IMG/VR virus record: IMGVR_UViG_3300012921_000063
Coordinates: 1-44,567 of that record
Length of the DNA stretch: 44,567 nt
Reading direction: 5' to 3' (one strand)
Origin: a virus
Lineage: Duplodnaviria > Caudoviricetes
Shown here: positions 1,366 to 30,793 of the stretch, piece after piece
Position numbering within the stretch: position 1 is the stretch's first letter
Layout of the letters: every line of letters begins with the position of its first letter
Made by a program: the position numbers and the translations under genes
The notes under the pieces: model-generated
The model's database searches: none
Seen by the model: the letters and a program-made list of their open reading frames with translations, nothing else
What the model was told of the DNA's origin: nothing

Positions 1366-1573
1366 GGCGGGCGCGCGCCGCGGCGAGCGCGGCCTCGGCG
1401 ACGCGCAGCTTCTCCAGCTCTTCCTCGAGCATCTGCCAGATCGGAAGATAAAGATCGGCGCGCTTGCCGGCCTTCACCATGTAGCGCGCCGTCATGTCCA
1501 GCCACCGCTCAAGGTCGGCGACCGTGACCGGTGGCAGGGGCCTTGTCGCCCAGCTCTGCTGGGGCTTTTTCAT
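1334..1573 (-). CDS. Small helical protein convergent on the integrase (possible recombination directionality factor)
   Basis: 79 aa; ATGA overlap with the upstream repeat gene; last gene of the leftward operon. Confidence 0.6.
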   Translation of the reverse strand: MKKPQQSWATRPLPPVTVADLERWLDMTARYMVKAGKRADLYLPIWQMLEEELEKLRVAEAALAAARARLTRSPDRTAA

Positions 1574-5068: not shown

Positions 5069-5116
5069 TTGCCAGATGGCAAACTATTTGACAAGTGGCA
5101 ATTTGCCATTTGGCTT
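5069..5116. promoter_or_regulatory. OL: three 14-bp operators (consensus TTGCCA-NN-TGGCAA) overlapping the leftward promoter PL
   Basis: ttgccagatggcaa 5069-5082, ttgacaagtggcaa 5088-5101, ttgccatttggctt 5103-5116; same consensus as OR. Confidence 0.85.
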
Positions 5117-5855
5117 AGAAGCGCAGATTGAAGCCCAGTTTGACGAGGTGGGCGTAGCGCCCGACGTCGACACTAAACCCATCAGCGATGGATACGCTCT
5201 GATTGCCGAGATCCAGGATGCCGTACTCCCCTCTGATCGCAAGCGCATCTGTGATGGCGTATTCCAGGCCAAGGGCTCCCGCCCACGACACGACGGTCGA
5301 ACGGCGCGCTTTGCCGCCTTCGTGTGACGCGACTGACGAGTTTAGATAGTTGTAAGTGTAGCCGCGATAGAGCACGACCGTGGAAACCCTCGCGACGGCA
5401 ATGCCGGCCGCGGCGTAGAGCAGCATCCGACCTTCGCTCAACCCCATGCGTGCGGTAACAGAGCCGTAGCCGTCGATCGACGTTGCTACTCTTACGTTAT
5501 GCAAGCGCTGCAGGATCAGAGTTGGAGCATCTTGCTCCAACAACGCCCCGGTCGAAAAGGACCCCGTCCTTAAGGCGGCCGCCTCGACCTCAAAGCCTCC
5601 AAAAAAACGATGGGCTACTGGCCAGAGGTAGCCAGCTTGCAACCCGCCTCCTAAGCCGCTTTCGTGCTCACCGAAGCTGTGATCAATATTTGTTGTCCGG
5701 TGGGGAAATTGCGCGCCAGAAAATTCGAAAATGTGGCCTATGCCGCCGGGCGCAAACTGGCCATTCGCGCCTACATAGAAGCCAGACCAATCGAAGTCGT
5801 CGGCCATCACCGGGCTCGCAAGCAATGCAGTTGCAAGACCTACGACTAAGTGCAC
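5115..5855 (-). CDS. Outer membrane beta-barrel protein (Omp25/RopB-like), co-transcribed with cI
   Basis: Signal peptide ..LLASPVMA-DD, DWSGFYVG, GLQAGY, WAGALGLEYA, terminal FNLRF; GTG at 5855 overlaps the cI TAG with a GGAGAGG RBS (ORF-track start 5876). Confidence 0.85.
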   Translation of the reverse strand: MHLVVGLATALLASPVMADDFDWSGFYVGANGQFAPGGIGHIFEFSGAQFPHRTTNIDHSFGEHESGLGGGLQAGYLWPVAHRFFGGFEVEAAALRTGSFSTGALLEQDAPTLILQRLHNVRVATSIDGYGSVTARMGLSEGRMLLYAAAGIAVARVSTVVLYRGYTYNYLNSSVASHEGGKARRSTVVSWAGALGLEYAITDALAIRGEYGILDLGNQSVSIADGFSVDVGRYAHLVKLGFNLRF

Positions 5856-6538
5856 TATCCTCTCCACTGAAACCACGCGACCACCCTCCCGTAGACTCGC
5901 ACATCTTCGCGCAGCAGCTCGTCGGAGCCGTAGCGCTCGTTGTCCGACATGATCATGATCTTGTCGGTGCGAGGGATCATCTTCACGCGTTTGATCATCA
6001 GGCCGTCGCCATAGTCGAGCGCATAGATGTCTTCTGGCGACGGCACAGTGTGCGTCGTGTCGACGAAGACGTAGGACCCATTTTTCAGCGTCGGCTCCAT
6101 GCTGTCGCCGGTGACCGGCATGGCATATACCTTTTGTAGCTTCCGCCAGCCGGCCTTCACCGCATCCGGGAAACTCCAGAAACCATCCGAATAGTCGGAA
6201 AAGACCTCGCCTTCCTGGTTAGTCTGGACGCTCAGCGCGCCGCCCGGACCCATGCCGGCATGGATAGTGAAGTTAGGGATATCGCCTTTCTTCCGTGGGT
6301 GATTGCCAAATACGGCGAGGCCTTTTGCCTGCTCAAGGTCGGCAGCGTCGAACTCGTCGCTGACCTCTTCCGGCTCGACTCCTAGGGCGCGAGCGATCCT
6401 TATGACCGACTCAAGGCTGAGCCCGCGGGAGCCGCTCTCCATGCGCGACAGGTGGCTCGTCGAGATGCCGGTCAACTCCGCCAGCTGTTCGATCGTCATG
6501 TCGCGTTTTTTGCGCAAGGCGCGGATTTGGTTGGCCAT
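5855..6538 (-). CDS. cI: CI-like repressor (XRE HTH plus S24 autoprotease)
   Basis: HTH IRALRKKRDMTIEQLAELTGISTSHLSRMESG; AG cleavage-type site (HAGMG); VTGDSMEP (Ser) and IKRV (Lys). Confidence 0.93.
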   Translation of the reverse strand: MANQIRALRKKRDMTIEQLAELTGISTSHLSRMESGSRGLSLESVIRIARALGVEPEEVSDEFDAADLEQAKGLAVFGNHPRKKGDIPNFTIHAGMGPGGALSVQTNQEGEVFSDYSDGFWSFPDAVKAGWRKLQKVYAMPVTGDSMEPTLKNGSYVFVDTTHTVPSPEDIYALDYGDGLMIKRVKMIPRTDKIMIMSDNERYGSDELLREDVRVYGRVVAWFQWRG

Positions 6539-6549
6539 GGTGCTGTTAT

Positions 6550-6622
6550 TCGCCAATTGGCAAAAACGCGCCACCGCCAGCTGGCAATTTGCCAATTGAC
6601 AAATCAATTTGCCGCGTGGCAA
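6550..6622. promoter_or_regulatory. OR: four 14-bp operators between cI and cro; TTGACA at 6596-6601 (PR -35)
   Basis: tcgccaattggcaa 6550-6563, ccgccagctggcaa 6574-6587, ttgccaattgacaa 6589-6602, ttgccgcgtggcaa 6609-6622. Confidence 0.88.
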
Positions 6623-6633
6623 GCATTGCGGCC

Positions 6634-6846
6634 ATGACGCTCGCCGGCTTTCTCGAAAAGCAAGGAATCAAGCCCTCGGTCTTCGCCGACAGCCTCGGCG
6701 TCGCACCGTCAACGATCCTTCGCATCATCAATCGGGAGCGGCTTCCTGGCCTCGAGCTGGCCCTCCAGATTCGAGAAGCGACCGGCGGACTGGTCCAGCC
6801 CGATGACTTTCTCACGGAACCCGAACCGGCCGAGGTCCACCCATGA
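6634..6846 (+). CDS. cro: Cro-like HTH regulator
   Basis: Divergent from cI; MTLAGFL...FADSLGVAPSTILRIINRERLP...ATGGLVQPDDF. Confidence 0.88.
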   Translation: MTLAGFLEKQGIKPSVFADSLGVAPSTILRIINRERLPGLELALQIREATGGLVQPDDFLTEPEPAEVHP

Positions 6847-6880
6847 CGGTTCGGCACGCTCACCATGAGGGGAGGTCTCA

Positions 6881-7084
6881 TTGGACACCGCACATTATCT
6901 GCGCTGGCGCGGCCGGCGGATTGTCGGCGGCGACGACTATCCCGAGGGGATCGCGCGGCAGGACAGGCGGCTCGTCTCGGTGTCCTACGACTTTCGTCGC
7001 CGCAAGGCCTGGCAACGTCAGCAGGCCGGCCGCTTCCCCGTCAATAGCCCTTATCGGGGTAGAGCATATCGCTCGGTGCAATAG
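6881..7084 (+). CDS. Possible 67-aa basic protein (alternative frame after cro)
   Basis: TTG start preceded by a strong GGAGGT. Confidence 0.35.
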   Translation: MDTAHYLRWRGRRIVGGDDYPEGIARQDRRLVSVSYDFRRRKAWQRQQAGRFPVNSPYRGRAYRSVQ

Positions 7085-7385
7085 GGTAGGGCTGTACGGT
7101 TCGAATGACCGCGCCTTCCTCAAGATCGGACAGCGCGATGTACACAGCTTCGCGCAGCGATTCGACCGTGTCGTAAATTCCGGAAGCGCGATCGCGAAGC
7201 AGATCGGTCTGTCGTTCGCGCGCTTCCTTCTCGGCATCTTCGGAGAGACGCTTGACGTGGTTGTCGACAATGACCATCGCCCGCTCCGGCAGTTGCGTGA
7301 CAACCGCTTCCAAGGTGCCCCGCAAGGCTTCGAGCACGCCAGCAAGGTAGGCGGGGCGAAGTTGATGCTCCTCAAGATCGGCCAT
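7041..7385 (-). CDS. Antisense accessory gene, helical hypothetical protein
   Basis: AAGGA RBS; amphipathic helical composition. Confidence 0.65.
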   Translation of the reverse strand: MADLEEHQLRPAYLAGVLEALRGTLEAVVTQLPERAMVIVDNHVKRLSEDAEKEARERQTDLLRDRASGIYDTVESLREAVYIALSDLEEGAVIRTVQPYPIAPSDMLYPDKGY

Positions 7386-7486
7386 GGCCGTGATTCCTTT
7401 TCGTTTCGACAGACCAATTGGAAATCACGCCACGGCCGGAAGCAAGCGGAGCGTCGGGAACGGCGCTCCGCTTGTGGAGAACGGGC

Positions 7487-8011
7487 ATGAGGCCGATCCC
7501 GCGCTCGCAGCATGTCGCCTACAAGGCCCGCCGCTTCTGCGGCGTGCCGGAACCCGACTTCATCGATCCCGTAGCGAAAGCATCCGCGGACAACGCTGGC
7601 ACCGGCGCCGAGAACAGAGGCGCCACCGCCAGGGCGGGAGATGCGAGTAGGCCGCATGGGGCGGACCATGCACGGGGGACGCCACCTGCTATCAGGCGTG
7701 ACGGCTCGGAGAGACGAGCACCCGATTCCCGCGCCAGCATCCTCCCCTGGGATCGCGCGGCGGCGCAGTGCCCTGACCGGCCCAGCTGCGCCATGGGCGA
7801 AGGCGCTCGAACGCCTTCGCCCGCCCTGTTCACCGACGACGGCGACCTGACCGACGTCCCGCCCTTCATCCGCGCGAACGTCTCGCGCTTCGGTGTTGAT
7901 CATGCCTCGCGCGCCGCAGGCGCTCCGGCAGGGCGCGGCATAAGCCGCGACGGCCGGTCGGCCTTGCGGGCTGCGCCCGACGAATCTCACAAACGTTGCG
8001 GCAGACCATGA
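7487..8011 (+). CDS. Hypothetical protein
   Basis: ATGA start with GGAG upstream; low-complexity sequence. Confidence 0.35.
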   Translation: MRPIPRSQHVAYKARRFCGVPEPDFIDPVAKASADNAGTGAENRGATARAGDASRPHGADHARGTPPAIRRDGSERRAPDSRASILPWDRAAAQCPDRPSCAMGEGARTPSPALFTDDGDLTDVPPFIRANVSRFGVDHASRAAGAPAGRGISRDGRSALRAAPDESHKRCGRP

Positions 8012-8167
8012 GCAGAACACCGGAAGCTCCCCCGTAGCGGCGAAGGGCGTCGGGAAAAACCCGACGCCGACGCTCGCTTTCTGAATCAACCGAGCCTTTC
8101 CCGCCACGGGAAACGACGCCGGAATTTCCCGGCGCGGGAAGGATTTTTGTCTTTGGAAGTCAACACG

Positions 8168-8638
8168 ATGACCGAGTGGACCGAGCGCTGGCACGTACGC
8201 TTTCGAGCCGCGCAGCGCGACCTGATCGATGCGTGCGGCGGCATCGAGCGCGTCGCCGAGCTGACGTCCTACGGCAAGTCGACGGTGGGGCGCTGGCGCA
8301 GCCCCGGCGACCGCGACGAGATGCCCCGGCCGGTCATCCTGACGCTCGAGGCCGATTGCGGCCGGCCGCTGATCACGCGGCTGATGAACGAGTTCAACGG
8401 GCTGACGCTGGCCGAGAAGGGTGCCGGCAGCGAGGCCGTTGCCGGGCTGGAAACGCTGGCCGCTTCGCTCGTCGAGCAGTCGGGCCGCTTCGTGGTCGAG
8501 ACCATCCGCGCACGCGGCGACGGCGTGGTGACGCCGAGCGAAGCTGACCAGCTGCGCGCCATCCAGGCGCAGGTCGGCCGGCTCAACGACCAGATCGCCG
8601 ACGCGCTGGCGGGCATACGGTCGGGAGGGCAGGGCTGA
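8168..8638 (+). CDS. CII-like phage regulatory protein
   Basis: RDLIDACGGIERVAELTSYGKSTVGRW HTH; DGVVTPSEA C-terminal motif; position after cro. Confidence 0.7.
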   Translation: MTEWTERWHVRFRAAQRDLIDACGGIERVAELTSYGKSTVGRWRSPGDRDEMPRPVILTLEADCGRPLITRLMNEFNGLTLAEKGAGSEAVAGLETLAASLVEQSGRFVVETIRARGDGVVTPSEADQLRAIQAQVGRLNDQIADALAGIRSGGQG

Positions 8639-8982
8639 TGCTGCGCTCGATCCGCTTCTGGGTGCTGCTGGCGCTGTTCTATCTGCTCGTCGTCGGCGGG
8701 CCGGTGATCTGGTTCATGACCCGGCCGGCCTGGCCGCATGATGCGCCGAGGGGCTGGTCTTATCCGTTCTCCTGCTGCTCCGGCTACGACTGCCGCGAGG
8801 TGAGGAAGTCGGCCATCGGCGAGCGCCCGAGCGGTTACGTCATCAACGGCACGGGCGAGGTCATCCCCTACGGCGACAGCCGGGTGAAGGAATCACCGGA
8901 CGGCGAGTTCCATTGGTGCTCGGTCGCCGGGAAGGATGACGGCAAGACGATCTGCCTGTTCGTGCCGCCGCGGTCGTTCTGA
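8638..8982 (+). CDS. Exported Cys-rich small protein
   Basis: N-terminal TM/signal, then HDAPRGWSYPFSCCSGYDC...FHWC...TICLFVPP. Confidence 0.75.
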   Translation: MLRSIRFWVLLALFYLLVVGGPVIWFMTRPAWPHDAPRGWSYPFSCCSGYDCREVRKSAIGERPSGYVINGTGEVIPYGDSRVKESPDGEFHWCSVAGKDDGKTICLFVPPRSF

Positions 8983-10541
8983 TGACGACGCTCGCCCTCC
9001 CGCCACCCGCCGAGATCAAGGCGCATCCGCTCGCCGAGCTGTTCCCCATGCTGCCCGATCAGGAGATCGCGGAGCTGGCGGACGACATCGTGACCTACGG
9101 CCAGCGCGTGCCGATCGTCATCCACGAGATGATGGTGCTTGACGGGCGCAACCGGCTCGCCGCCTGCCTGTTCGCGCAGGTCGAGCCGGTTTTCGAGTTC
9201 TACGAAGGCGATGATCCGCTCGGCTTCGTGCTGTCGCACAATCTGCACCGGCGGCACCTGACGGCCAGCCAGCGCGCCATGGTCGCGGCGTCGATCGTCG
9301 ACTGGGAGCATGGGCTCAACCAGAACACGGCCGGGTCAGCAAATTTGCCGACCCGGAAAGCGGCCGAGCGGCTGTCGATCAGCGAGCGCGCGGTCATTGC
9401 GGCCAAGCGCATCCGGGAGCACGGCTCGGCGGAATTGGTGCAGGCGATCCGCGACGGGCGGGTTTCGGTTCACGCCGGCGAGGCGCTGTCGGACTTGGCG
9501 CACGAGGCGCAGCGCGAGGCGCTTGCCGCGGAAGAGCGCGAGATCATCCGGCGGGCGAAGGAAATCCGCGCGGCACGGCAGGAGCTGCGCCACGCCGAGC
9601 GGCTGGCGAACATGGAGCGCATCGCCGCGGCCGGGCGGCCGGCCGCGCCGCGCAAGCTCGACCGGCTCTATGCGGTCTACCACGCCGACCCGCCCTGGCG
9701 CTTCGCCGTGCACTCGGAAACGACCGGCCGGGAGAAGAGCGCGGAAAACCACTATCCGACCATGGCGACGGAAGAGATCGCCGCGCTGCTGGCCGAACTG
9801 ATCGGCGGGGAATCGCCCGCCGTCTTCTTCTGCTGGGCCACCAACCCGATGCTGCCCGACGCGCTGAAGGTGCTTGCCGCCTGCGGCTTCACCTATGTGC
9901 ACCATTGGGTCTGGGACAAGGAAGTCGCCGGCACCGGCTTCTGGGGCCGCGACCGGCACGAGCTGCTGCTGATCGGCCGCCGTGGCGACGTCGCCTCACC
10001 TTTGCCCGGCTCGCAGCCGGAAACGGTGTTCCGGGTGAAGAAGGGCAGGCACTCGGCCAAGCCGGACGTCTTTGCGGAGACGATTGAAAAGCTGTTTCCG
10101 GGCGTGTCGCGGCTGGAGCTTTTCGCGCGGCGCGCGCGGCCGGGCTGGGATGCGTGGGGCTTTGAAGCTGCCGGTGAAAGAATCCGGTCGGCGCAGGATG
10201 AGCCGATGGAGCCCTCGCCAGCGACCGGACAGCCGCCGGTAGGCGAGGGCTCCCCCGATCCAGAGGAAGCGCTGCTCTACGCGCAGTCCGTCGTGGAGGG
10301 AAGGATATCGGCGCGCCGGCTCCAGCGCCGCCTGCAGATCGACTACGGCAGCGCGCGGGCGCTTCTTGATCTGGCGAGCGAGCGCGATGTCTCCCCGCGA
10401 CTGATCGAGTTGATCGTCACGGGCATGCAGAGCGAAGCGGGGCGGCAGGCGCTCATCGCGGCGCTCGACATCATGATTGAGGGCGAGGCGGGCGGCGAGG
10501 CGGACCATGATGCGCCGCCCGCCGGAGCGGTGCCGGCATGA
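8982..10541 (+). CDS. ParB-like domain plus MT-A70 family adenine methyltransferase plus C-terminal FtsK-gamma-like winged helix
   Basis: VLDGRNRL / SHNLHRRHLT (ParB-like); ADPPW, AENHYPTM, HELLLIG, HSAKP, LELFAR, GWDAWGFE (MT-A70); ISARRLQRRLQIDYGSARALLD. Confidence 0.85.
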   Translation: MTTLALPPPAEIKAHPLAELFPMLPDQEIAELADDIVTYGQRVPIVIHEMMVLDGRNRLAACLFAQVEPVFEFYEGDDPLGFVLSHNLHRRHLTASQRAMVAASIVDWEHGLNQNTAGSANLPTRKAAERLSISERAVIAAKRIREHGSAELVQAIRDGRVSVHAGEALSDLAHEAQREALAAEEREIIRRAKEIRAARQELRHAERLANMERIAAAGRPAAPRKLDRLYAVYHADPPWRFAVHSETTGREKSAENHYPTMATEEIAALLAELIGGESPAVFFCWATNPMLPDALKVLAACGFTYVHHWVWDKEVAGTGFWGRDRHELLLIGRRGDVASPLPGSQPETVFRVKKGRHSAKPDVFAETIEKLFPGVSRLELFARRARPGWDAWGFEAAGERIRSAQDEPMEPSPATGQPPVGEGSPDPEEALLYAQSVVEGRISARRLQRRLQIDYGSARALLDLASERDVSPRLIELIVTGMQSEAGRQALIAALDIMIEGEAGGEADHDAPPAGAVPA

Positions 10542-11251
10542 GCTCAGATCGTCAGGTGATCGGGCTTCTGGGCGAGCAGCTCGAGGTGCTCGTATTTCGC
10601 GCCGATGATGCGGAGCTTGATCCGCGCGCCGACCGGAATTCTGAAGATGCCCTGAATCTCTCCCTCGTCAGGTCCGAACATCTGGACCTGAACCCGAACG
10701 GAGGGAGCCGGTTGGTTGCGGTCCGTCCAGCCGCCGATGGTGAAGGAGGTCGGGACCTGTCCTGGCCGGCCGAAGTCAGCAATTCGTTTCGAATTCAGTT
10801 TGGGGTCGAAAAACTCGGACTCGCCGAACCGGACGCCTTCGATCGGCAGGATGTCGATGATCTCGATCGTCCGTCGGTTCCAGTTCGTTATGACGACGTC
10901 GACCTGACCAAAATGCGCGGTCCGTTCCAACTCGGCAGTCGGAAAGGCGTCGCCAATCTGGAAGGCTGTCTGGCGGCGCGTCTCGCGCATCTGGCCGGCG
11001 AGATAGACGATCGTGGCGCCGGCCGCGATTGCCGCCGCCCAGCCGCTGAGAGCGCCGATCCACTCGCGCAAGCAATCCGCCTCGCCGGCGATGCACCAAT
11101 CGGCGCGCACGATGGCAAAGTCGGAAATCGCGAGGAAGGCGAAGCCGCCCAGCGCGCCAGCGCAGAACAGTACGATGAAATCTCCGGTGCCCATCTCCCG
11201 CATGGATGGCTGAATAGCACGGCGGCTACGATCTTCGCGAGGGCCGCATGA
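10538..11251 (+). other. Sense 'bridge' ORF 2 (237 codons); coding status uncertain
   Basis: ATGA overlaps at 10538-10541 and 11248-11251; in register with the antisense gene. Confidence 0.4.
10544..11203 (-). CDS. Antisense accessory gene: membrane protein with two N-terminal TM segments and a beta-rich C-terminal domain
   Basis: FIVLFCAGALGGFAFLAI and WIGALSGWAAAIAAGATIVYL, then a globular domain. Confidence 0.75.
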   Translation of the reverse strand: MREMGTGDFIVLFCAGALGGFAFLAISDFAIVRADWCIAGEADCLREWIGALSGWAAAIAAGATIVYLAGQMRETRRQTAFQIGDAFPTAELERTAHFGQVDVVITNWNRRTIEIIDILPIEGVRFGESEFFDPKLNSKRIADFGRPGQVPTSFTIGGWTDRNQPAPSVRVQVQMFGPDEGEIQGIFRIPVGARIKLRIIGAKYEHLELLAQKPDHLTI

Positions 11252-13863
11252 ACGCGCATGCCGGCGATCCCTATCTCGATTTCCTGCGCGGCAAGATCAA
11301 GCTGGCCGAGCTTGCCGGTTTCCATGTCGAGGCCGACGAGATCAATCCACGGCTGGCGCCGCACTGCCGCGCGATCGTGAAGTGGGCGGCGAGCGGCGGC
11401 TGCCGCGCGATCTTCGCCAGCTTCGGCCTGCACAAGACCTCCATGCAGATCGAGCTGATGCGGCTCGTCGGGCTGCGCCACAAGGGGCCGCGGCTGATCG
11501 TGATCCCGCTCGGGGTGCGGCACGAATTCTTCGCCGAGGTCGAAGAGCGGTTCACCGGCGAGCATGCGGCGACGCTGCGCTTCGTGCGGCGCGACGGCGA
11601 CATCGACTGGGACGACGATTCCGTCATCTGGCTCGCCAACTACGAGAGCGTGCGCGACGGCAAGATCGACGTGTCGCGCTTCGTCGCCGCCTCGCTCGAC
11701 GAGGCGGCCGTGCTGCGCGGCTACGGCACGAAGACCTTCCAGACGTTCCTGCCGCTGTTCGAGAAGGTGCGCTTCAAGTTCGTCGCCACCGCGACGCCCT
11801 CGCCGAACCGGACGAAGGAGCTGATCCACTATGCCGGCTTCCTCGGCATCATGGACACCGGCCAGGCGCTGACGCGCTTCTTCCAGCGCAACTCGGAGAC
11901 CGCCGGCGACCTGACGCTCTATGCGCACAAGGTCGACGAGTTCTGGATGTGGGTGCACAGCTGGGCCGTCTTCCTGCAGAGCCCGGCCGACCTCGGCTTT
12001 CCCGACGAGGGCTATCGGCTGCCGCCGGTGACCGTGCGCTGGCACGAGGTGCCGATCGACCACGGCACGGCCGGCTACGATCGCGACGGGCAGGGCCTGC
12101 TGTTGCGCAACACGGCGCTCGGCGTCAGCCAGGCGTCGGCGGCGAAGCGGGACAGCCTGGCGGCGCGCATCGGCAAGATGGTCGAGCTGATCGCGGAAGA
12201 GCCGGAGGCGCACCGCGTGCTCTGGCACGACCTCGAGGCGGAGCGCGAGGCGATCGAGGCGGCGGTTCCCGGCGTGCGTTCGATCTACGGCTCTCAGGAC
12301 CTAGACGCCAACGAGGCGACCGCCGTCGGCTTCAAGGAAGGGCGTTTCAAAAACCTCGCCACCAAGCCGGAGATGAGCGGGGCGGGCAACAACTTTCAGA
12401 AGCACTGCCACCGCGCGATCTTCGTCGGCATCGGCTTCAAGTTCCACGACTTCATACAGGCCGTCCATCGGATCGTGCGCTTCGGGCAGCATCACGCCTG
12501 CACGATCGACATCATCTATTCGGAGGCCGAGCGCGAGGTGCGCCGCAGCCTCGAGGGCAAGTGGGCCGAGCACGAAACCATGATGGCGCGGATGGCCGAG
12601 ATCATCCGCAGATACGGACTGTCGGGCCTGCCCGTCGACGAGGTGCTGACGCGCTCGATCGGCGTGACGCGCCGGGTGGAAGAGGGGGCGCTGTTCCGCA
12701 TCGCACACAATGACGCGGTGGACGAGGCGCAGCGGACAGCGAGCGCGTCGGTCGGGCAGATCGTGACCTCGATCCCCTTCGCCAACCACTTCGAATATTG
12801 CGCCAGCTACAATGATTTCGGTCACACCGAAGACAACGGCCATTTCTGGCGCCAGATGGATTTCCTGACGCCGGAGCTCTTCCGGATCCTGATGCCCGGC
12901 CGGCTGGCCTGCATCCACGTGAAGGACCGGGTGCTGTTCGGCAACGTCACCGGCGAAGGCGTGCCGACGATCTCGCCGTTCCACGCCGAGGCGATCTTTC
13001 ACTACCTGCAGCACGGCTTCCAGTATTTCGGCATGATCACCGTCGTCACCGACGTGGTGCGCGAGAACAACCAGACCTATCGGCTCAGCTATTCGGAGAT
13101 GATGAAGGACGCCACGAAGATGGGCGTCGGGTGTCCCGAATACGTGCTGCTCTTCCGCCGCCCGCAAAGCGACCAGACACGAGGCTACGCCGACCTGCCG
13201 GTCGAGCACGACAAGCCGCTGGTGATCGCGGCCGACGGCAGCCACGAGCGATGGAGCGACGGCGACAAGCGCAGCCAGGTGGCCGGCAGCGGTTATACTT
13301 TGGCGCGGTGGCAGCTCGACGCCCATTCCTTCTGGCCTTCGTCCGGCAACCGGCTGCTCGTCACCGCCGAACTGGTGAAGCTGGGCAGCAAATCGACCAC
13401 CCATCTGTTCAAGAAGATTTTCGAGGATGGCGGCCCGCCATACGATTTCGACGCGCATGTGCGGCTCGGCGAAGAGCTGGCGGAGCGGGACAGCATCTCG
13501 AAGACCTACATGACGCTCGACCCGCCGTCGAAACATCCGGCGGTGTGGAGCGACGTGGTGCGCATGCTGACGCTGAATGGGCAGCAGGCGCAGAAGAACC
13601 TCGAAAAGCACGTCTGCCCGCTGCAGTTCGACATCGTCGACCGGCTGATCGACCGCTACTCGAATGCCGGCGAGGTCATCTACGACCCGTTCGGCGGGCT
13701 GATGACGGTGCCCTACCGCGCCATCCTGAAAGGCCGGCGCGGCCAGGCCTCGGAACTTTCCGCAACCTACTTCCATGACGGGCTGCACTACTGCCGCCAG
13801 GCCGAAGCCAGGCGGGCCGTGCCCGACATGTTCGCCATGCTCGAAACGGAGGCGGCGGCATGA
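11248..13863 (+). CDS. SNF2-like helicase fused to an N4C/N6A DNA methyltransferase
   Basis: ASFGLHKT, SLDEAA, ATATPSPN, QAVHRIVRFGQ (helicase); VTSIPF (motif IV), KHVCPLQ, YDPFGG (motif I). Confidence 0.88.
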   Translation: MNAHAGDPYLDFLRGKIKLAELAGFHVEADEINPRLAPHCRAIVKWAASGGCRAIFASFGLHKTSMQIELMRLVGLRHKGPRLIVIPLGVRHEFFAEVEERFTGEHAATLRFVRRDGDIDWDDDSVIWLANYESVRDGKIDVSRFVAASLDEAAVLRGYGTKTFQTFLPLFEKVRFKFVATATPSPNRTKELIHYAGFLGIMDTGQALTRFFQRNSETAGDLTLYAHKVDEFWMWVHSWAVFLQSPADLGFPDEGYRLPPVTVRWHEVPIDHGTAGYDRDGQGLLLRNTALGVSQASAAKRDSLAARIGKMVELIAEEPEAHRVLWHDLEAEREAIEAAVPGVRSIYGSQDLDANEATAVGFKEGRFKNLATKPEMSGAGNNFQKHCHRAIFVGIGFKFHDFIQAVHRIVRFGQHHACTIDIIYSEAEREVRRSLEGKWAEHETMMARMAEIIRRYGLSGLPVDEVLTRSIGVTRRVEEGALFRIAHNDAVDEAQRTASASVGQIVTSIPFANHFEYCASYNDFGHTEDNGHFWRQMDFLTPELFRILMPGRLACIHVKDRVLFGNVTGEGVPTISPFHAEAIFHYLQHGFQYFGMITVVTDVVRENNQTYRLSYSEMMKDATKMGVGCPEYVLLFRRPQSDQTRGYADLPVEHDKPLVIAADGSHERWSDGDKRSQVAGSGYTLARWQLDAHSFWPSSGNRLLVTAELVKLGSKSTTHLFKKIFEDGGPPYDFDAHVRLGEELAERDSISKTYMTLDPPSKHPAVWSDVVRMLTLNGQQAQKNLEKHVCPLQFDIVDRLIDRYSNAGEVIYDPFGGLMTVPYRAILKGRRGQASELSATYFHDGLHYCRQAEARRAVPDMFAMLETEAAA

Positions 13864-14138
13864 TGGTTCGACAGGCTCACCACAGGCTCCCCGACTTCTC
13901 GCCTCTGATGCTGCGCTTCTTCCTGCATGCCCGGCACCGGCATTCGGGCAGCAAGGCGCCGGCGACCAAAGCGCTCAACCCGCTGCGCAAGGTCGCTGGC
14001 GTCGATGTCTTCGAGATGCGCGCGGCCATCGCCGGGCACCTCGATAAGGCAGAGCCGCGCGTGAAGCTTTGGGCTGCGCTCGGCCATGTCGTCGCCGATC
14101 ACGGAATCACTCTGACCGATGATGGAGGGCAGCGATGA
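13860..14138 (+). CDS. Hypothetical protein
   Basis: ATGA-coupled on both sides. Confidence 0.7.
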   Translation: MMVRQAHHRLPDFSPLMLRFFLHARHRHSGSKAPATKALNPLRKVAGVDVFEMRAAIAGHLDKAEPRVKLWAALGHVVADHGITLTDDGGQR

Positions 14139-14401
14139 GGGCCGCGTTCGACTGGCGGCGCTTCGGCCGCGACGTGCTTGAAGCCATCGGAGGCCGGCCG
14201 CTTCGCCAGCTCGCAGAAGAGATCGGCGTGACCGCGACCGACCTGTCTCGCGCATCCTCCGGAACGAATGTCGGCATCGAGAAGGTGCTCGCCATGTGCG
14301 ACGCCTTCGGCCTTTCCGAGCGCCGCTACTTCCTTCCACCCGATCCAACGAAATCAACACGTTGCACCTCAGCACACGTGAAACACGAGGCACGGGCATG
14401 A
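14135..14401 (+). CDS. XRE-type HTH protein
   Basis: LRQLAEEIGVTATDLSRASSG...VLAMCDAFGL. Confidence 0.78.
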   Translation: MRAAFDWRRFGRDVLEAIGGRPLRQLAEEIGVTATDLSRASSGTNVGIEKVLAMCDAFGLSERRYFLPPDPTKSTRCTSAHVKHEARA

Positions 14402-14982
14402 CCAGTGGATTTCCGGCGCAGCAGGCTTGGGTTTGCGGGCTGACGATCATGCAGCAGTCGGTGCTCTTCGCCGCGATCCGGGCACCCGACGGCATCCGGA
14501 AGGATCATCCGGCGAAGGTGTTGCTGCGTTGGTACCGCCGCTGCATCCTCGTCTCCGCCTTTGACGGAAAAGCGCTGACCGACCCATTCGTCCGTGGTGG
14601 CGGAAGCTTCACTGGCCCGTACGAAATCCATCATGCGGCGGCTTTCGATCCGGGCTTCACCTCAGGCGCGCGTCGCGCTCTTGAAGACGGCAATGTCGAG
14701 GTCTGGGACCGCCTAAAGGCCGCATCATTCGACAGTCAGCGCGACACCTACCTCAGGCACGTCGACGAACTGCCGCATCACTTCCAGCTGCACTTCATGC
14801 ATGCCGCCGAGATCGTCGGCTTCAAGCATCCGGATTCTGCCATCCGGACTTGGTGGCGGGAATTCTACGAGATGCTTGTCAACGACGCGCATCTGTTCCC
14901 GGAAACCGAAGAGCAGATGGACGAGCGGCTGAGCGATTTCGAGCCGGCTTGGCGCGCGCGCGAAAAGGTGTTTGCGCGATGA
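14398..14982 (+). CDS. Phage hypothetical protein with a His cluster
   Basis: ATGA-coupled start MTSGF; QQSVLFAAIRAPDG...HVDELPHHFQLHFMHAAEI. Confidence 0.78.
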   Translation: MTSGFPAQQAWVCGLTIMQQSVLFAAIRAPDGIRKDHPAKVLLRWYRRCILVSAFDGKALTDPFVRGGGSFTGPYEIHHAAAFDPGFTSGARRALEDGNVEVWDRLKAASFDSQRDTYLRHVDELPHHFQLHFMHAAEIVGFKHPDSAIRTWWREFYEMLVNDAHLFPETEEQMDERLSDFEPAWRAREKVFAR

Positions 14983-15287
14983 CGCACGCCACCGACAGCA
15001 TGAACCCGTTCGTCCGGCAGATGTACGACGCGGCCGACGATCGCGCGCGGGCGGCGGTGCTGCTCATGGTGCCCGACAAGTATCTGGCGATGTACCGGCC
15101 GCTGTTCGAACGGGCCTGCCGGCGCGCCGGCTTCGACCTCGGCCTGAGCTTCATCGCCGTGCGGCGCTCCGAGTGGAACGCCGTGCGCGGCCCCGACGGC
15201 CGGCACAAGCAGCCGCTGTTCGACCAGGCCCGGCGGGAGATGGCGAGCTATGCCTGCGGCGGGCCGGGTGACCGGGAGCGGGCATGA
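14979..15287 (+). CDS. Hypothetical protein
   Basis: ATGA-coupled start MTHATDS. Confidence 0.7.
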   Translation: MTHATDSMNPFVRQMYDAADDRARAAVLLMVPDKYLAMYRPLFERACRRAGFDLGLSFIAVRRSEWNAVRGPDGRHKQPLFDQARREMASYACGGPGDRERA

Positions 15288-15805
15288 GCTATCAGCCCAA
15301 ATGGCCGGCCTCGGCTCCGGACGAATTGCGCAGCCAGGCCGTCGTCGAGGCGCTCGGCGCGGTCGAGGCGCGCCGGCTGGCGACCGTGCTCGGCAAGGCG
15401 GAGGCTGCGGCACGCGCGCGCCTGGCCGAAGCGGCGAAGGCGGTCGAGCAGGCGCAGATCGATGCGACGCGGCTGATCGACGAGGCGAAGGCCGAAGCCG
15501 AGGCGATCATTGCCGGCCTGCCGGATTTCGCCGCGATCGAGGCGGCTCCGGCATCCGACGGCAACAGCGCGATGCGCGCGATCCGCGACGCCGCCGACCG
15601 GCAGGGCATCGCGCTCGCCGCCGTCATCGGCACGTCGCAGAATCCGAAGGCGAAGCTGGCGCGGCTCGAGGCGGCGCTGCGCGTCGCCGAGGCGTGCCCG
15701 ACGCTGACCAATCGGCAGCTGGGCCGGATGTTCAAGCGCTCGGGACCGGCCTTCGCCTGGCTGCTGCGCAAGGCCAAAGAGGCCAGACGGCGAGGCGAGA
15801 TATGA
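15284..15805 (+). CDS. Coiled coil plus DnaA C-terminal-like HTH protein
   Basis: ARLEAALRV...LTNRQLGRMFKRS resembles the DnaA domain IV pattern. Confidence 0.6.
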   Translation: MSYQPKWPASAPDELRSQAVVEALGAVEARRLATVLGKAEAAARARLAEAAKAVEQAQIDATRLIDEAKAEAEAIIAGLPDFAAIEAAPASDGNSAMRAIRDAADRQGIALAAVIGTSQNPKAKLARLEAALRVAEACPTLTNRQLGRMFKRSGPAFAWLLRKAKEARRRGEI

Positions 15806-16389
15806 GCGCGCCCGCCATCCGGATCGCCGGCTTCGAGCAGCGCTGGCTGTTCGACCGGGGCAGCGGCGAATGGTCGGAAGTCAGCATGCGCGGCGGCATC
15901 GCCATCGTGCCGGCGCGCGCGCTCGACGAGTTCGGGACGCGCGCGGCGATCGAGCGGCACGAGGCGGAGAAGAGCCGCGCCTGGCACAGCTCCGAGATGG
16001 CGCTGCATCGCTCGCTGCAGAAGCGCGATGTCGAGCCGGTGATCCGCAGCGGCTGGGCGCTGCACCATTTCGGCAGCGGCCGGCGGCTGACGCCGGCGGG
16101 CTGGCTGTTCGACCGGATCGAGGATGCGGCCGACGCGGCCGAGGCGCTGCTCGCCGACGAATGGGGAGCGTATTTCGAGGGGCACCTCGCCGACATTCAG
16201 CATTTCGGGCTGTGGGTCATCGGCGTGCACCGCTCGCACGGCTGCTTCACCGGGCGGCATCATCACCTCGCCGTGCTCGACGCGGCGATCGACCAGGGCG
16301 CCTATGAGACGAGGCTCGCCGCGCTGCGCAGCGGGCAGGCCTGCGAGCGCTGGCGCATCGCCGATCCGGTGCAGGGGAGGGCGGCGTGA
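15802..16389 (+). CDS. Hypothetical protein
   Basis: ATGA-coupled start MSAPAIRIAG. Confidence 0.65.
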   Translation: MSAPAIRIAGFEQRWLFDRGSGEWSEVSMRGGIAIVPARALDEFGTRAAIERHEAEKSRAWHSSEMALHRSLQKRDVEPVIRSGWALHHFGSGRRLTPAGWLFDRIEDAADAAEALLADEWGAYFEGHLADIQHFGLWVIGVHRSHGCFTGRHHHLAVLDAAIDQGAYETRLAALRSGQACERWRIADPVQGRAA

Positions 16390-17756
16390 ATGTGGCTGTA
16401 CGTCCCGGCGTCGACCTCATCAGCCTCTGCACCGGCGGAGGCGGGCTTGATCTCGGCGTCGAGCTGGCAATTCCAGGCGCTCGCGCAGTCTGCATGGTGG
16501 AGAGGGAAGCATTCGCCGTCGCGCACCTGGTGGCAGCGATGGAACAGGGCCTCCTTCATCCGGCTCCTCTGTGGAGCGATGCCCGAACCTTCGACGGCCG
16601 AGCTTGGCGTGGCTGCGTGGACGGCCTCATTGGCGGCATCCCGTGCCAGCCGCATAGCGAGGCCGGCAAGCGGCTCGGTAAGCAGGACGAGCGCGACCTC
16701 TGGAGCCCGACCCGGCGCATCATCGTCCAGTCGCAGCCGTGGTTTGTGTTCATCAAGAACGTCCGCGGCATGCTCTTCAGCGGCGGATTCGAGCGGGTTT
16801 GGCGAGACCTTCAGCGGCTTGGTTTCACGGTTGAACCAGGACTGTTTACGGCGGCAGAAGTCGGCGCTCAGCACGAAAGAGCTAGGCTTTTCATCCTCGC
16901 AGTGGATGACGCCGGATGTCCCGAATGGCGGCCGGACGCTTATGCCCGGAACTTCACCGACGGGCCGGCGGCCGGACGGATCGAAGGCGCAGGTCGGGCT
17001 GCAGAACCAGGTCCTCTCGTGGCCGACGCCGAACGCGACGGACGGGGAGAACGGCTCGGCCGGCCAGGTGTTCGCGCGGGGGAATCTCAGCCTGACGGCC
17101 GCCGCGGCGATGTGGCCGACACCGCGAGCATCGGAGGGGAACGAGGATTTCGCCAAGGTAGAGCGCTCAAGCACCGGGGTGTCGCTGCCGACGATGGCGG
17201 CGATTTGGTCGACGCCTCGTGCATCGGATGGGGAGAAGGGCAGTCCAAACCAAGCTCCGGGACAGGGCGGTGGTGTTCCGCTGTCGGCGCAGGCGCACAA
17301 GTGGCGAACGCCGCAAGCGATGGATGCGGAGCGCGGCTCGAACGGGACCTGGGAGCCCCAGGCGAAGGCTGGCGAGCATTCTCTTCGACATCAAATCGAG
17401 AAATGGAAGACGCCGCGGACGGTCTTCGGAAGCTACACGCGGGACAATGGCGATCCGGAGAAGCGTCGACCGTCGATCGACGGGCAGGCCTTGGCCTTTT
17501 CGCGCCTGGCCCCTCAGAGCGAGACGCTTGGCGAGACGTCCTCGAGCGAGCGCCGGAGCTTGAACCCGCTATTCGTCGAGTGGCTGATGGGGTGGCCGCC
17601 GATGTGGGTTCGCGTGTGGACGAACTCCGGCTGCTCGGCAACGGCGTTGTCCCGCTGGAAGCGGCATATGCGTTCCGCACTCTCGCAACACGCCTCGCCG
17701 CCGCCGGCTCCGCCGGCGCAACTCGGCTTGTTCGGATGATGGAGGCGGCGGAATGA
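16386..17756 (+). CDS. C5-cytosine DNA methyltransferase, catalytic frame (motifs I-VIII and X); motif VI reads KNV
   Basis: SLCTGGGG (I), GGIPCQPHS (IV), DERDLW (V), FIKNV (VI variant), QHERARLF (VIII), LRLLGNGVVP (X). Confidence 0.85.
   Translation: MNVAVRPGVDLISLCTGGGGLDLGVELAIPGARAVCMVEREAFAVAHLVAAMEQGLLHPAPLWSDARTFDGRAWRGCVDGLIGGIPCQPHSEAGKRLGKQDERDLWSPTRRIIVQSQPWFVFIKNVRGMLFSGGFERVWRDLQRLGFTVEPGLFTAAEVGAQHERARLFILAVDDAGCPEWRPDAYARNFTDGPAAGRIEGAGRAAEPGPLVADAERDGRGERLGRPGVRAGESQPDGRRGDVADTASIGGERGFRQGRALKHRGVAADDGGDLVDASCIGWGEGQSKPSSGTGRWCSAVGAGAQVANAASDGCGARLERDLGAPGEGWRAFSSTSNREMEDAADGLRKLHAGQWRSGEASTVDRRAGLGLFAPGPSERDAWRDVLERAPELEPAIRRVADGVAADVGSRVDELRLLGNGVVPLEAAYAFRTLATRLAAAGSAGATRLVRMMEAAE
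16390..17739 (+). CDS. Overlapping +1-frame product with six WxTP modules and motif IX (candidate second MTase subunit)
   Basis: 449 codons open; WMTP, WPTP, WPTP, WSTP, WRTP, WKTP; LNPLFVEWLMGWP; ends QLGLFG. Confidence 0.75.
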   Translation: MWLYVPASTSSASAPAEAGLISASSWQFQALAQSAWWRGKHSPSRTWWQRWNRASFIRLLCGAMPEPSTAELGVAAWTASLAASRASRIARPASGSVSRTSATSGARPGASSSSRSRGLCSSRTSAACSSAADSSGFGETFSGLVSRLNQDCLRRQKSALSTKELGFSSSQWMTPDVPNGGRTLMPGTSPTGRRPDGSKAQVGLQNQVLSWPTPNATDGENGSAGQVFARGNLSLTAAAAMWPTPRASEGNEDFAKVERSSTGVSLPTMAAIWSTPRASDGEKGSPNQAPGQGGGVPLSAQAHKWRTPQAMDAERGSNGTWEPQAKAGEHSLRHQIEKWKTPRTVFGSYTRDNGDPEKRRPSIDGQALAFSRLAPQSETLGETSSSERRSLNPLFVEWLMGWPPMWVRVWTNSGCSATALSRWKRHMRSALSQHASPPPAPPAQLGLFG

Positions 17757-18322
17757 AGCCGCTACTCGACTATCCTCAGAACACGCAGCGGCGACGGGCT
17801 GACGAACTCGTCCCAGACGACGCCGGGGTATTCCGCGACGCTAAAATCGACGGTGCCGGTCCAGTAGCCGTTGAATACGTGCTCCTGGCTCATGCCCTGG
17901 TCAGGGTAGCCCTGGACGGCGTGGATGTTGCCGCGATGCACCGGTGCCGCCGGATCGACCAGCTCCACCTCGTAGATCGTGTCACCGGGCGTCAGCTGGT
18001 TCCGGTAGGCGCGAGCGGTTGCGATGTTGTCGGTGTGGAAGGTCGAGGAGAGACGGGAAGGCTTGTTCGGGAACCGCTGCTGGCGGAAAGCCTCGTTGGC
18101 CATCTCGCGCGTCCAGAGGGCATGGCCCGGCCCGCCTTCGAGGATGATCCTGCCGAAGTTGCCGGGCAGGATGACGTCGCCTGCCTCGTGCTTGTCGCGG
18201 GTCGAGTGGTAGCGCGGCATCGCCGTGAATTCGTTGCGTTCGGGGTCAAGCGTCATGTCGTCATCAGCCTGCGCATTCGCAAGTCGGTTCGCGCCGGAAG
18301 ACGCGAGGGCCGACGCCGATGA
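17753..18322 (+). other. Sense 'bridge' ORF 3 (189 codons); coding status uncertain
   Basis: ATGA overlaps at 17753-17756 and 18319-18322; in register with the antisense gene. Confidence 0.4.
17762..18256 (-). CDS. Antisense accessory gene: DUF2441-like / ADP-ribosyltransferase-fold protein
   Basis: RYHSTRDKHEAGDVILPG, E..R..RFPNKPSRLSSTF, IYEVEL and a terminal W-D-E. Confidence 0.65.
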   Translation of the reverse strand: MTLDPERNEFTAMPRYHSTRDKHEAGDVILPGNFGRIILEGGPGHALWTREMANEAFRQQRFPNKPSRLSSTFHTDNIATARAYRNQLTPGDTIYEVELVDPAAPVHRGNIHAVQGYPDQGMSQEHVFNGYWTGTVDFSVAEYPGVVWDEFVSPSPLRVLRIVE

Positions 18323-19506
18323 GCAACGAATGTTCGGCCATCGTCTGGAAACGCGACTTCGGAGGCGCCAGCCGCAAGCTGATCGCCGCTCGGCTCGCCG
18401 ACCACGCCGATGACGAAGGGCGCGGCATCTGGCCCAGCGTCGAGCGGGTCGCGGCGCAGTGCAACGTTTCGCCGCGCACCGTGCAGCGCGTGCTGGCGGA
18501 CTTCGTAGACGAGAAAATCCTTGTCATCGTCGACGAAGGCGGGCGCGGGCGCGGCAGCACCCGCCGCTACGATTTCAATATGGCCGTGGTGAAGGGGCTG
18601 CCGGTCGCAAAATGGAAGCCGGACGAGCCTGCCGAAATCAAGGGTGACACGGTGTCACCCTTGGAATCTCAGGGTGACAACGAGGCGCCTAAGGGTGACA
18701 GCGGCGACGTCTTAGGGTGTCACGGTGACACCCAAACCGCCATAGAACCACCAGTAGAACCTCCAGTTGTGAGTGTGCGCGAGCGCGCGGGCGAGGAAGA
18801 GGGCGAAAACCGGAAAGCGGTCGAAAAGGCGTTCGAGCGAGCCTGGCAGGCGTGGCCGACATCGGTCGGCAATAGCCGGCCGGATGCGTGGAAGGCGTGG
18901 CTGGCGCTGACGCCTGCCGAGCGCGTGGCGGCGGCCGAAGAGGCGCAGCGCTACGTCGCTGCGGTGAGGGCGGTTCACAGCAAGGTCTGCGCCCATTCGA
19001 AGTATCTGAGCGAGCGGCGCTGGATACACAATTTGCCGCCGAAGCCGGAAGCCGCGGCCGAGCCGGTCGAGGCAAAGCCGCTCGGCAAGGCGTGGATGGC
19101 GCTCTGGTACCAGGGAATCCTCGGCGGGCCGGATCCTCGCTTCGCGCCGCGGCTGACGAGCTGGGAGCAGTCCCTCGTCGACCAGGGCAAGGCCGACGCG
19201 CAGGAGCTCTTGCGGCAGAAGGTGACCCGCGACGGCTATCCCGAGGTGAAGCGGCTGAACGAGGGCCTGCGCTACCGCACCGTGCCGCGGGTCGAGCCGG
19301 CGCTCGCGGCGCTGGCGGCAGACTTCAAGGCAGTGCATGTCGGCGACGAAATCTGGGAGGCGTGGAAGGCGCTGCACGCCGAGCGCGGCTGGCCCTGGCT
19401 GCCCGATCTCGGCTGGATCGAATGGGTGCACTTCCCGCCCGGCGGACCGGATGGGCTGAAGGCGTTCGAGGAAGCGGTGAAGGCGCTCGGTGGAGGGAAG
19501 GCATGA
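18319..19506 (+). CDS. Replication initiator (N-terminal winged HTH)
   Basis: LADHADDEGRGIWPSVERVAAQCNVSPRTVQR; FERAWQAWP; internal iterons. Confidence 0.85.
   Translation: MSNECSAIVWKRDFGGASRKLIAARLADHADDEGRGIWPSVERVAAQCNVSPRTVQRVLADFVDEKILVIVDEGGRGRGSTRRYDFNMAVVKGLPVAKWKPDEPAEIKGDTVSPLESQGDNEAPKGDSGDVLGCHGDTQTAIEPPVEPPVVSVRERAGEEEGENRKAVEKAFERAWQAWPTSVGNSRPDAWKAWLALTPAERVAAAEEAQRYVAAVRAVHSKVCAHSKYLSERRWIHNLPPKPEAAAEPVEAKPLGKAWMALWYQGILGGPDPRFAPRLTSWEQSLVDQGKADAQELLRQKVTRDGYPEVKRLNEGLRYRTVPRVEPALAALAADFKAVHVGDEIWEAWKALHAERGWPWLPDLGWIEWVHFPPGGPDGLKAFEEAVKALGGGKA
18639..18733. repeat. Replication-origin iterons (GGGTGACA / TGTCACCC)
   Basis: Palindrome caagggtgacac-g-gtgtcacccttg 18639-18663; agggtgaca at 18671 and 18692; gggtgtcac-g-gtgacaccc 18715-18733. 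Confidence 0.78.
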
Positions 19507-20126
19507 TGCGGCCTGACTACGATCTTTCCACGCGCGAGGTGCTTGCCCTTGAGCGCGGTCGACAGAAGGCCGAGCTGATCGCCTGGCTTCGGCGCGAGGC
19601 TGCTTCGCGTAATGGGGACATGTTCTGGTACGTGGCCCAGACAAGGTGGCGTGCTGATTCGGTTGCTGGCGAATTGCGCGGGCAGGGAATCGAGGCTGTA
19701 TGTCCGAAATCGCGCTACTGGCAGCGTTATCCGGGGAGCCGTTCGCGCTTCCCTGTGGAGAAACCGGTCTTCGGAAACTACCTCTTCGTGCGCACGCTGA
19801 AGGCCGAGTCGGCATGGGTCGGTGTTCTCAGCTTCGAGGGCATCAAGTCGCTGCGCGGCGATGGCGAACGGCCTCTGCCGATCACCAAGAAGGAAGAGGC
19901 GCAAATCCTTGCGCTGCTTGAGGATGCGAGCACGATCGCCGATCGGGAGGCAAACCCGATCGCGGTCGGCGACAAGGTTCTGCATCCGCTCGGCAGCATC
20001 GCCGAACTGCATGGCGAAGTGCTTGAGCTCGACCCAGTGAAGCGGGAGGCTCTGGTCTCGACTGTGCTGTTCGGTCGTGAACTCAGCACACGATGCAGTA
20101 TTGACGATCTCGAAAAGCTCGCTTAG
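19503..20126 (+). CDS. NusG/RfaH-family transcription antiterminator (late regulator)
   Basis: WYVAQT...PVFGNYLFVR (NGN domain); VGDKV and VLFGRE (KOW domain); Q-equivalent position. Confidence 0.85.
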   Translation: MMRPDYDLSTREVLALERGRQKAELIAWLRREAASRNGDMFWYVAQTRWRADSVAGELRGQGIEAVCPKSRYWQRYPGSRSRFPVEKPVFGNYLFVRTLKAESAWVGVLSFEGIKSLRGDGERPLPITKKEEAQILALLEDASTIADREANPIAVGDKVLHPLGSIAELHGEVLELDPVKREALVSTVLFGRELSTRCSIDDLEKLA

Positions 20127-30423: not shown

Positions 30424-30554
30424 ACATGACGCCGCAGCAGGTCGATCAAATGTCGATGTGGCAGTTTTTCGCGATGTTCGACGGCATGTCGGACGACAGT
30501 GAAAGCCTGACGGCCGAAGAGATTGACGAGTTGTGGGAGTGGGTGAGGGGCTAG
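30333..30554 (+). CDS. -1 frameshift extension of the chaperone (gpGT-like)
   Basis: Slippery A AAA AAA G at 30333-30340; the -1 frame reads ...FGAIYG..MTPQQVDQMSMWQFFA. Confidence 0.8.
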   Translation, partial: KKRRSSGRRIDDLPNGKFRFGAIYGACGRLNMTPQQVDQMSMWQFFAMFDGMSDDSESLTAEEIDELWEWVRG

Positions 30555-30793
30555 CCGTCCCCGAACAGGCTGTCTGGGAGACAGGTTATCGATCCGATGC
30601 CGAGGCTCTCACTGTGAACACCGAGCGCTTCAGCGATCTTCACGTGGTCACGCTTCAGGGCCTCACATTCGCTTTTAGATAGCCCTTTGGCCACTACGCG
30701 CTCCGAGTTACCGACCGCATGAACCAGGCGATAGGTCTCGGCAGCAGCCGACAGAGTTGCCGCGAGCACGGCGATCATCAGCACGTATTTCAC
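30551..30793 (-). CDS. Antisense moron: small exported protein
   Basis: GTG start with GGGAG RBS; signal peptide MKYVLMIAVLAATLSAAA; two Cys. Confidence 0.7.
   Translation of the reverse strand: MKYVLMIAVLAATLSAAAETYRLVHAVGNSERVVAKGLSKSECEALKRDHVKIAEALGVHSESLGIGSITCLPDSLFGDG

Follow-up and report, generated by a model that had tools for sequence, protein, structure and literature searches.

Three slots in the rightward early operon of a temperate phage raise the question of why a gene on the minus strand should lie wholly beneath an open plus-strand reading frame that is joined to the operon genes on both sides. The phage is IMG/VR virus record IMGVR_UViG_3300012921_000063 (Duplodnaviria; Caudoviricetes), analysed over its whole length of 44,567 nucleotides (nt; hereafter, the window). 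It has 65% GC and a gene order, by Pfam and PHROG, of integrase-side genes, cI, cro, a CII-like gene, the early operon, a NusG paralog, and then terminase, head, tail, and lysis genes. The early operon contains methyltransferases, a helicase, and a replication initiator, and is closed by the NusG paralog.

The minus-strand genes are referred to below as cargo, and the plus-strand open reading frames (ORFs) covering them as bridges. The geometry recurs with unrelated cargo, stop codons are avoided in the bridge frame, the bridge product is unconstrained, and there are no bridges in late operons or outside operons. Judging from these sequence patterns, we consider it fairly probable that the plus frames are kept free of stops and joined to their neighbours while the encoded protein drifts, and that they form a ribosome relay against Rho over real antisense accessory genes. 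The bridges and cargo genes of the window are:

Bridge 1: 6843..7490, plus strand, 215 codons, negative coding score, no family match
Cargo 1: 7041..7385, minus strand, 114 amino acids (aa), predicted helical, seven distinct homologs among the fetched loci
Bridge 2: 10538..11251, plus strand, 237 codons, tail containing the Shine–Dalgarno (SD)-like motif of the next gene
Cargo 2: 10544..11203, minus strand, 219 aa, hydrophobic N-terminus, family occurring inside and outside prophage operons
Bridge 3: 17753..18322, plus strand, 189 codons, no family match
Cargo 3: 17762..18256, minus strand, 164 aa, precomputed matches to Pfam PF10386 (DUF2441) and PHROG 5663

All six ORFs translate without internal stops, and stop/start overlaps of the type seen in coupled gene pairs (ATGA) are found at positions 6843, 7487, 10538, 11248, 17753, and 18319. 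This confirms the initial annotation, which had described three minus-strand genes, each fully covered by a plus-strand ORF in codon register with it, with every one of the six junctions formed by ATGA. After training on the window's clear genes, a codon model favours the minus frames (18, 61, and 58 for slots 1–3, vs. −20, 7, and −10 for the bridges). An opposite-strand gene nested between co-oriented operon genes is found at the three slots and in the 21 lineages described below.

Between cro and the nusG-like gene, 16 of the 17 junctions are overlap-coupled (14 RTGA, 2 TGATG), hence ATGA as such is the norm in this operon. An in-register frame over cargo 2 or cargo 3 would be open by chance with P ~0.65 each; both genes are so rich in G and C at third codon positions (GC3) that the antisense frame should be open in about two of three cases. 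In a simulation that kept the ATGA tetramers constant, recoded the cargo synonymously, shuffled the spacers, and randomised the phases, one doubly coupled ORF arose with probabilities of 0.004, 0.042, and 0.047 for slots 1–3, and the joint probability of three such ORFs is ~7e-6, a post hoc figure. With the observed phases kept, the same simulation gives 0.02, 0.51, and 0.55. The frames at slots 2 and 3 are unremarkable alone; the decision rests with the relatives.

Recurrence in the early operons of relatives

Loci were fetched around the helicase–methylase, replication initiator, and CII-like plus g14979 genes (the MT-A70 alignment, being too variable, was unsuitable for scanning), genes were called with our own codon model, and antisense calls between cII and nusG were listed from 176 loci, duplicates included. 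Removal of duplicates reduced 57 calls to 41 distinct ones. Seventeen of the 41 were dropped as shadows of real plus-strand genes (14 covered by an open frame, and three uncovered: L126, L128, and L191), the grounds being a Pfam match of the plus frame (3), likeness to such genes (2), or weak scores judged by eye (the rest). Together with island L151, added from a gap scan, this yields 25 islands in 21 lineages, two of which are the window's own; L200, which represents the window's own prophage, does not enter the curated counts. Loci L046 and L028, bridged at first sight, proved to have real plus-strand genes.

The early-operon cargo of relatives comprises HicA/HicB (five lineages), BrnT/BrnA, HNH, DUF6161, DUF2441, an ISL3-family transposase, and unknown membrane proteins; the HNH cargo of L104 has matches to models of type IV restriction. 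In all 21 lineages, a single ORF covers the cargo and starts at −10 to +30 of the upstream stop. The codons TTA, CTA, and TCA, which would be stops in the bridge, occur five times in early cargo vs. 66 expected from GC3-matched codon usage, and three times vs. 42 expected in the 17 lineages with independent gene support, two long ORFs being trimmed. Strict overlap at both ends is seen in 20 of the 25 islands, and in 18 of 20 simulated lineages vs. 0.21 expected; a looser relay is seen in 18 lineages vs. 3.2 expected even with the phases held as observed. Relatives thus carry different cargo, toxin–antitoxin and type IV restriction-like genes included, under the same open and coupled sense frame, which is the comparison that the initial annotation had proposed.

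The five islands without strict coupling are three HicAB copies, L167, whose bridge ends in ATGA on a replication gene overlooked by our own gene caller, and the transposase island, which is covered but continues as a chain of ORFs. At L083 (10633–11961), an antisense ISL3-family transposase gene lies under a 446-codon sense frame starting at an overlap. Bridges span gene pairs, spacers, and promoter regions, the longest having 833 codons over two cargo genes (L161). A repeated operator-like sequence surrounds the hicA start of L014, L119, L120, and L130; it sits in the bridge tail, so that the bridge also reads through the toxin–antitoxin control region.

These counts bear on the possibility that the bridges are not under present selection, having arisen by chance as shadow ORFs in GC-rich genes or being left over from a gene hit by cargo insertion. 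Such frames do arise: long alternative-frame ORFs are described as common (PMC3454372), the antisense frame is open over 12 of 30 chromosomal hicB genes (and over 5 of 20 hicAB pairs), and the value of ~0.65 for cargo 2 and 3 is of the same kind. However, low-GC cargo of 331–420 codons contains 0 would-be stop codons vs. 6–10 expected.

Moreover, neither late cargo nor members of these families outside operons have an open frame. The late set was drawn from 89 tail-region loci and from the window itself. Of its 64 rows, 15 were removed as shadows and the others combined into 36 lineages, and none of these 36 antisense cargo lineages is covered. Among them is a gene of the window itself, which serves as an internal control:

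Late-operon antisense gene without a bridge: 30551..30793, minus strand

Late cargo contains 103 TTA, CTA, and TCA codons vs. 69 expected. A cargo-centred search of 401 genomes of the family of locus L019 yielded eight loci matching cargo 3 and 20 matching cargo 2; six of these 28 loci were left out (L275, with four stops; the fragments L278, L281, L299, and L301; and L300, identical to L115), and operon context was assigned by the analyst after seeing the flanks. The frame over the cargo 2 and cargo 3 homologs is open in 11 of the 12 prophage early-operon loci and in 0 of 10 loci elsewhere, with 1 would-be stop codon vs. 39 expected in operons and 41 vs. 32 outside. Of the 12 operon loci, nine, at different slots, are coupled at both ends, two have a transposase-like gene at the missing end, and one has a stop. 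In the leftward early operon, seven plus-strand islands, mostly integrase or cI-adjacent genes, include one that is covered, a set too small and too mixed to weigh here.

Openness is therefore not the context-independent outcome of codon usage that marks a neutral shadow ORF, and it persists between cargo 3 and a homolog at another slot despite differences at 41 of 53 fourfold sites. Chance or remnant frames are largely refuted by the coupling simulation and the early–late contrast, and we give them hardly any credence.

Selected frame and role of the cover

Third positions of the cargo frame diverge most in every family compared. Cargo 2 and its homolog in L001 share 66% identity with 42 of 78 fourfold sites changed, and cargo 3 and the homolog just mentioned, in L274, share 65%. 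The cargo proteins are under purifying selection and the minus-strand genes are real genes, in agreement with the initial annotation. Over those pairs, the bridge frames have 39 and 35% identity, while equally diverged core genes have shadow frames with 44 and 43%. The closest HicAB pairs have bridge frames more alike than the reference bin, as these pairs are simply closer in DNA. The bridge frame is kept open; the bridge product is not kept.

A functional bridge protein, e.g., an inhibitor of its own cargo as Ith is of Tha, is accordingly very improbable in our view. Precedents are known, as an antisense inhibitor gene is reported for Tha (PMC11087260) and overlapping exclusion genes for phage Fc02 (PMC9936078). 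Here, however, bridge sequence is conserved no more than shadow frames, the scanned bridges gave no Pfam match, the protein database contains no homolog of bridge 2, and similarity of bridges to other loci is confined to stretches over homologous cargo. They do not behave as members of dual-coding antisense pairs, in which both products are selected or functional.

The assignment of accessory or defence functions to the cargo, made in the initial annotation, is upheld in part. The cargo genes are real genes, and relatives have toxin–antitoxin and type IV restriction-like cargo, but the window's three genes match no defence model: PADLOC and NCBIfam gave no match for any of them, and cargo 1 also lacks Pfam and PHROG matches. 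Cargo 1 and 2 fall only into hypothetical clusters in Atlas. For cargo 3, a separate Pfam scan at E 0.001 gave no match, and a sequence search found no relative of solved structure.

The first slot was called the weakest in the initial annotation, its downstream ORF being of low confidence. That ORF is now explained as the counterpart of a length-variable ORF with low coding score that follows cro in relatives:

Second relay ORF: 7487..8011, plus strand, 174 codons, ending 156 nt before cII

Slot 1 is a family-wide elastic relay after cro. The cro stop overlaps a start in 65 of 66 distinct cro-to-cII intervals, and the length of the first ORF ranges from 4 to 274 codons. In every one of the 47 intervals longer than 300 nt, among them the 13 with called cargo, the relay extends to at most 175 nt from cII but does not overlap it, ending 70–175 nt upstream; most intervals without called cargo have the relay as well.

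This slot helps to separate suppression of polarity from the reading that a bridge is translated only to feed the next gene by termination–reinitiation, with transcription not at risk. That reading draws on the two-ended overlap in 20 of 25 cII-to-nusG islands and 9 of 12 cargo-centred operon loci, and on the coupling of the whole early operon, where 652 of 1061 junctions are overlap-coupled. It is weakened by the post-cro relays, which stop before cII and couple to nothing, and by the SD-like motifs that 15 of 22 downstream genes possess themselves. Polarity is preferred over pure coupling mainly because cover is kept where no gene takes over the ribosomes, and we consider pure coupling rather unlikely.

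The arrangement exists, recurs, and is under selection, and this variant of the noncontiguous operon probably works by suppression of polarity through translation. Translation uncoupled from transcription exposes RNA to Rho and silences downstream genes; Rho also suppresses antisense and prophage transcription, and is countered by N, Q, and RfaH (PMC12360218). An antisense insert would leave 0.5–2.5 kb untranslated ahead of the replication genes. Ribosomes ending the upstream gene may restart at the overlapping ATG and then read the stop-free bridge, whose own stop, lying on the start of the next gene, would hand them over and keep them from running across its initiation site. The early transcript would thus stay covered, and Rho would be prevented from ending it inside the insert. 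In lysogeny, the cargo would be read from a small antisense promoter of its own, probably damped when the early promoter fires. Late transcripts would need no bridge, as the NusG paralog would antiterminate them.

Ribosome cover might instead serve RNA stability or silencing, either as a shield from nucleases or from the cargo's antisense RNA, or by polymerase override of the cargo promoter. The noncontiguous operons of phage 80alpha, reported to switch antisense genes off on induction (PMC11087260), would fit, and toxin–antitoxin and nuclease genes are frequent among the cargo. Nevertheless, the post-cro relays are kept in most intervals without called cargo, and late-operon antisense cargo faces the same problem without a bridge; we hold this explanation to be improbable.

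Several observations weigh against suppression of polarity, or against the strength of the evidence for it. The three islands of one HicAB lineage start 11–24 nt after the upstream stop, with no overlap, and L289 has one stop. The islands were curated by hand, and the late set consists largely of other, lower-GC genomes than the early set, although early cargo with GC3 of 0.40–0.60 is still bridged. In relatives, the operon strand over cargo shows just a slight excess of C (mean skew +0.04; 22 of 29 positive), and over the window's three cargo genes it is not C-rich; hence, no rut-like signal supports Rho here. Finally, pure translational coupling would account just as well for the precise 3′ coupling of most cII-to-nusG slots. 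A consensus scan found no terminator-like site at the junctions of the three slots, which is weak evidence that one transcript runs across the antisense genes.

A candidate promoter of cargo lies in the bridge tail:

Promoter-like element for cargo 2: 11204..11245, minus strand, inside the tail of bridge 2, upstream box reverse-complementary to the SD-like motif of the next gene

The same pattern is present in L001, L063, L142, L284, L293, L295, and L296. Eight of the 35 bridge tails contain it, compared with none of 538 ordinary junctions; the comparison is post hoc, the pattern having been drawn from three of the eight. These elements may drive the cargo. A scan for E. coli-type promoters found no site.

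Known systems and consequences

A close counterpart is S. aureus phage 80alpha (tha-1/ith-1), likewise with an antisense gene nested in a phage operon; there the nested gene has its own promoter, expression switches between lysogeny and lysis, and the cargo is defensive, all of which may also apply to the window phage. It differs in that overlapping transcripts and an inhibitor protein with a function are described for it, and its text uses neither “translational coupling” nor “polar” (PMC11087260); the window phage has a full-length coupled frame over the cargo, with an unconstrained product. Suppression of Rho polarity shares the predicted principle, ribosomes hiding RNA from Rho, and here a NusG paralog closes the early operon; in the cases described in PMC12360218, protective translation is that of ordinary genes or leaders, whereas here a product-less frame runs through the antisense strand of another gene. 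Pseudomonas phage Fc02 (olg1/olg2 and gene 10) likewise has extensive antisense overlap in the lysis–lysogeny region of a temperate phage, but the products of both strands have exclusion activity (PMC9936078), in contrast to the unconstrained sense product of the window. Shadow ORFs of GC-rich genes share long in-register antisense frames and depletion of alternative-frame stops (PMC3454372); openness here depends on context, early operon vs. late operon or chromosome, and the ends are coupled.

Antisense accessory genes in phage operons, and their switch at induction, are on record for 80alpha, as are antisense morons in lytic regions of Salmonella prophages (10.1101/787010) and a general excess of long alternative-frame ORFs. 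A doubly coupled product-less frame over exchangeable antisense cargo was found described nowhere in the literature searched, most subscription papers lying outside it.

Coupling at ATGA or TGATG, the lambda nin region, and icd-ant in P1/P7 immI belong to the general background. These systems share chains of stop–start overlaps in phage early operons, where translation of one ORF is needed for the next, but the genes involved are short or real and lie on a single strand; long frames over exchangeable antisense cargo are not known from them. A literature search on P1 immI, lambda nin, and rhizobial phage antitermination gave nothing usable.

If suppression of polarity is the correct explanation, the bridges constitute a class of reading frames selected for being translated and not for their product, with a measurable signature, the loss of TTA, CTA, and TCA in the genes crossed. 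It would explain how lysogeny-expressed cargo can reside inside a lytic operon without cutting off the replication genes, and would give a sequence-based criterion for locating accessory and defence genes that gene callers miss because of a bridge. It would also allow a direct test of why long antisense ORFs exist, as one base change that is silent in the cargo makes a bridge stop.

Phage setting, mirror frames, and other observations

The named relatives of the window phage lie in Mesorhizobium, Shinella, and allied genera, hence its host is likely a rhizobial alphaproteobacterium. The early-region genes around the slots are:

cI-like repressor with helix-turn-helix (HTH) and S24 peptidase domains: 5855..6538, minus strand, Pfam HTH_3 and Peptidase_S24, PHROG 4, ATG at 6538
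Cro-like HTH gene: 6634..6846, plus strand, Pfam HTH_3, stop overlapping the bridge 1 start (ATGA)
CII-like activator: 8168..8638, plus strand, PHROG 101
ParB-like and MT-A70 methyltransferase gene, upstream of bridge 2: 8982..10541, plus strand, Pfam and PHROG
Helicase-like and N6/N4 methyltransferase fusion, downstream of bridge 2: 11248..13863, plus strand, Pfam and PHROG
C5 cytosine methyltransferase, main frame, upstream of bridge 3: 16386..17756, plus strand, Pfam and PHROG
Replication initiation protein, downstream of bridge 3: 18319..19506, plus strand, Pfam and PHROG
NusG-family paralog closing the early operon: 19503..20126, plus strand, Pfam NusG, PHROG 6386

The NusG paralog is predicted to be the late antiterminator; LoaP, UpxY, and RfaH models match its product only below their cut-offs.

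Frames on the opposite strand run from the region upstream of cII towards cI:

Mirror relay ORF 1: 6878..8020, minus strand, 380 codons, G-rich SD-like motif and GTG start, out of frame over cargo 1, ending in ATGA on the start of mirror relay ORF 2
Mirror relay ORF 2, antisense to cro: 6546..6881, minus strand, 111 codons, TAA 7 nt before the cI ATG
Short inverted-repeat pair upstream of cII, conserved, loose pattern: 8099..8141, strand not assigned

Cargo 1 is therefore overlaid by two further open frames, as the mirror relay crosses it. Judged by eye, the cI start at 6538 has no obvious SD motif. The inverted-repeat pattern occurs in 105 of 150 distinct cII upstream regions, a raw count with no chance control; the pair at 8099..8141 may represent CII sites of an establishment promoter, presumably resembling that of lambda, or RNA hairpins. 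In relatives, an SD-like motif and a start left of the inverted repeats open a long minus-strand ORF, and the relay reaches a candidate cI start in 22 of the 46 loci with both the motif and cI, vs. 4.1 expected (11 loci have no start to test). With a null that keeps the sense frames open, the first mirror ORF reaches cro in 24 of 26 loci vs. 13.8 expected; 12 of those 24 are guaranteed by the null, and the remainder gives 12 of 14 vs. 1.8 expected. A two-way ribosome relay is possible, though somewhat less likely than not: product-less frames would carry ribosomes over every backward insert of the lytic transcript, a mirror relay would carry them from the establishment promoter over cargo and cro to the repressor start, both would replace N-type antitermination, and the junctions would be swappable slots for defence cargo that avoids the three codons.

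Directly downstream of cI, an outer-membrane beta-barrel gene with low GC3 (5115–5876, minus strand) is likely a lysogenic accessory gene. The C5 methyltransferase has two fully overlapping open frames (16386–17756 and 16390–17739, plus strand; overlap ~450 codons), the second ending in a motif-IX-like stretch. In this respect it can be likened to the heterodimeric M.EcoHK31I, whose beta chain is encoded in another frame (PMC2836561). Elsewhere in the window, a DUF7666 protein (1570–2868, minus strand) has a long tandem repeat region open in several frames, a tail protein (39326–40972, plus strand) has an Mtd N-terminal domain, and small HTH and zinc-ribbon genes lie antisense after the lysis genes (43343–44217, minus strand).

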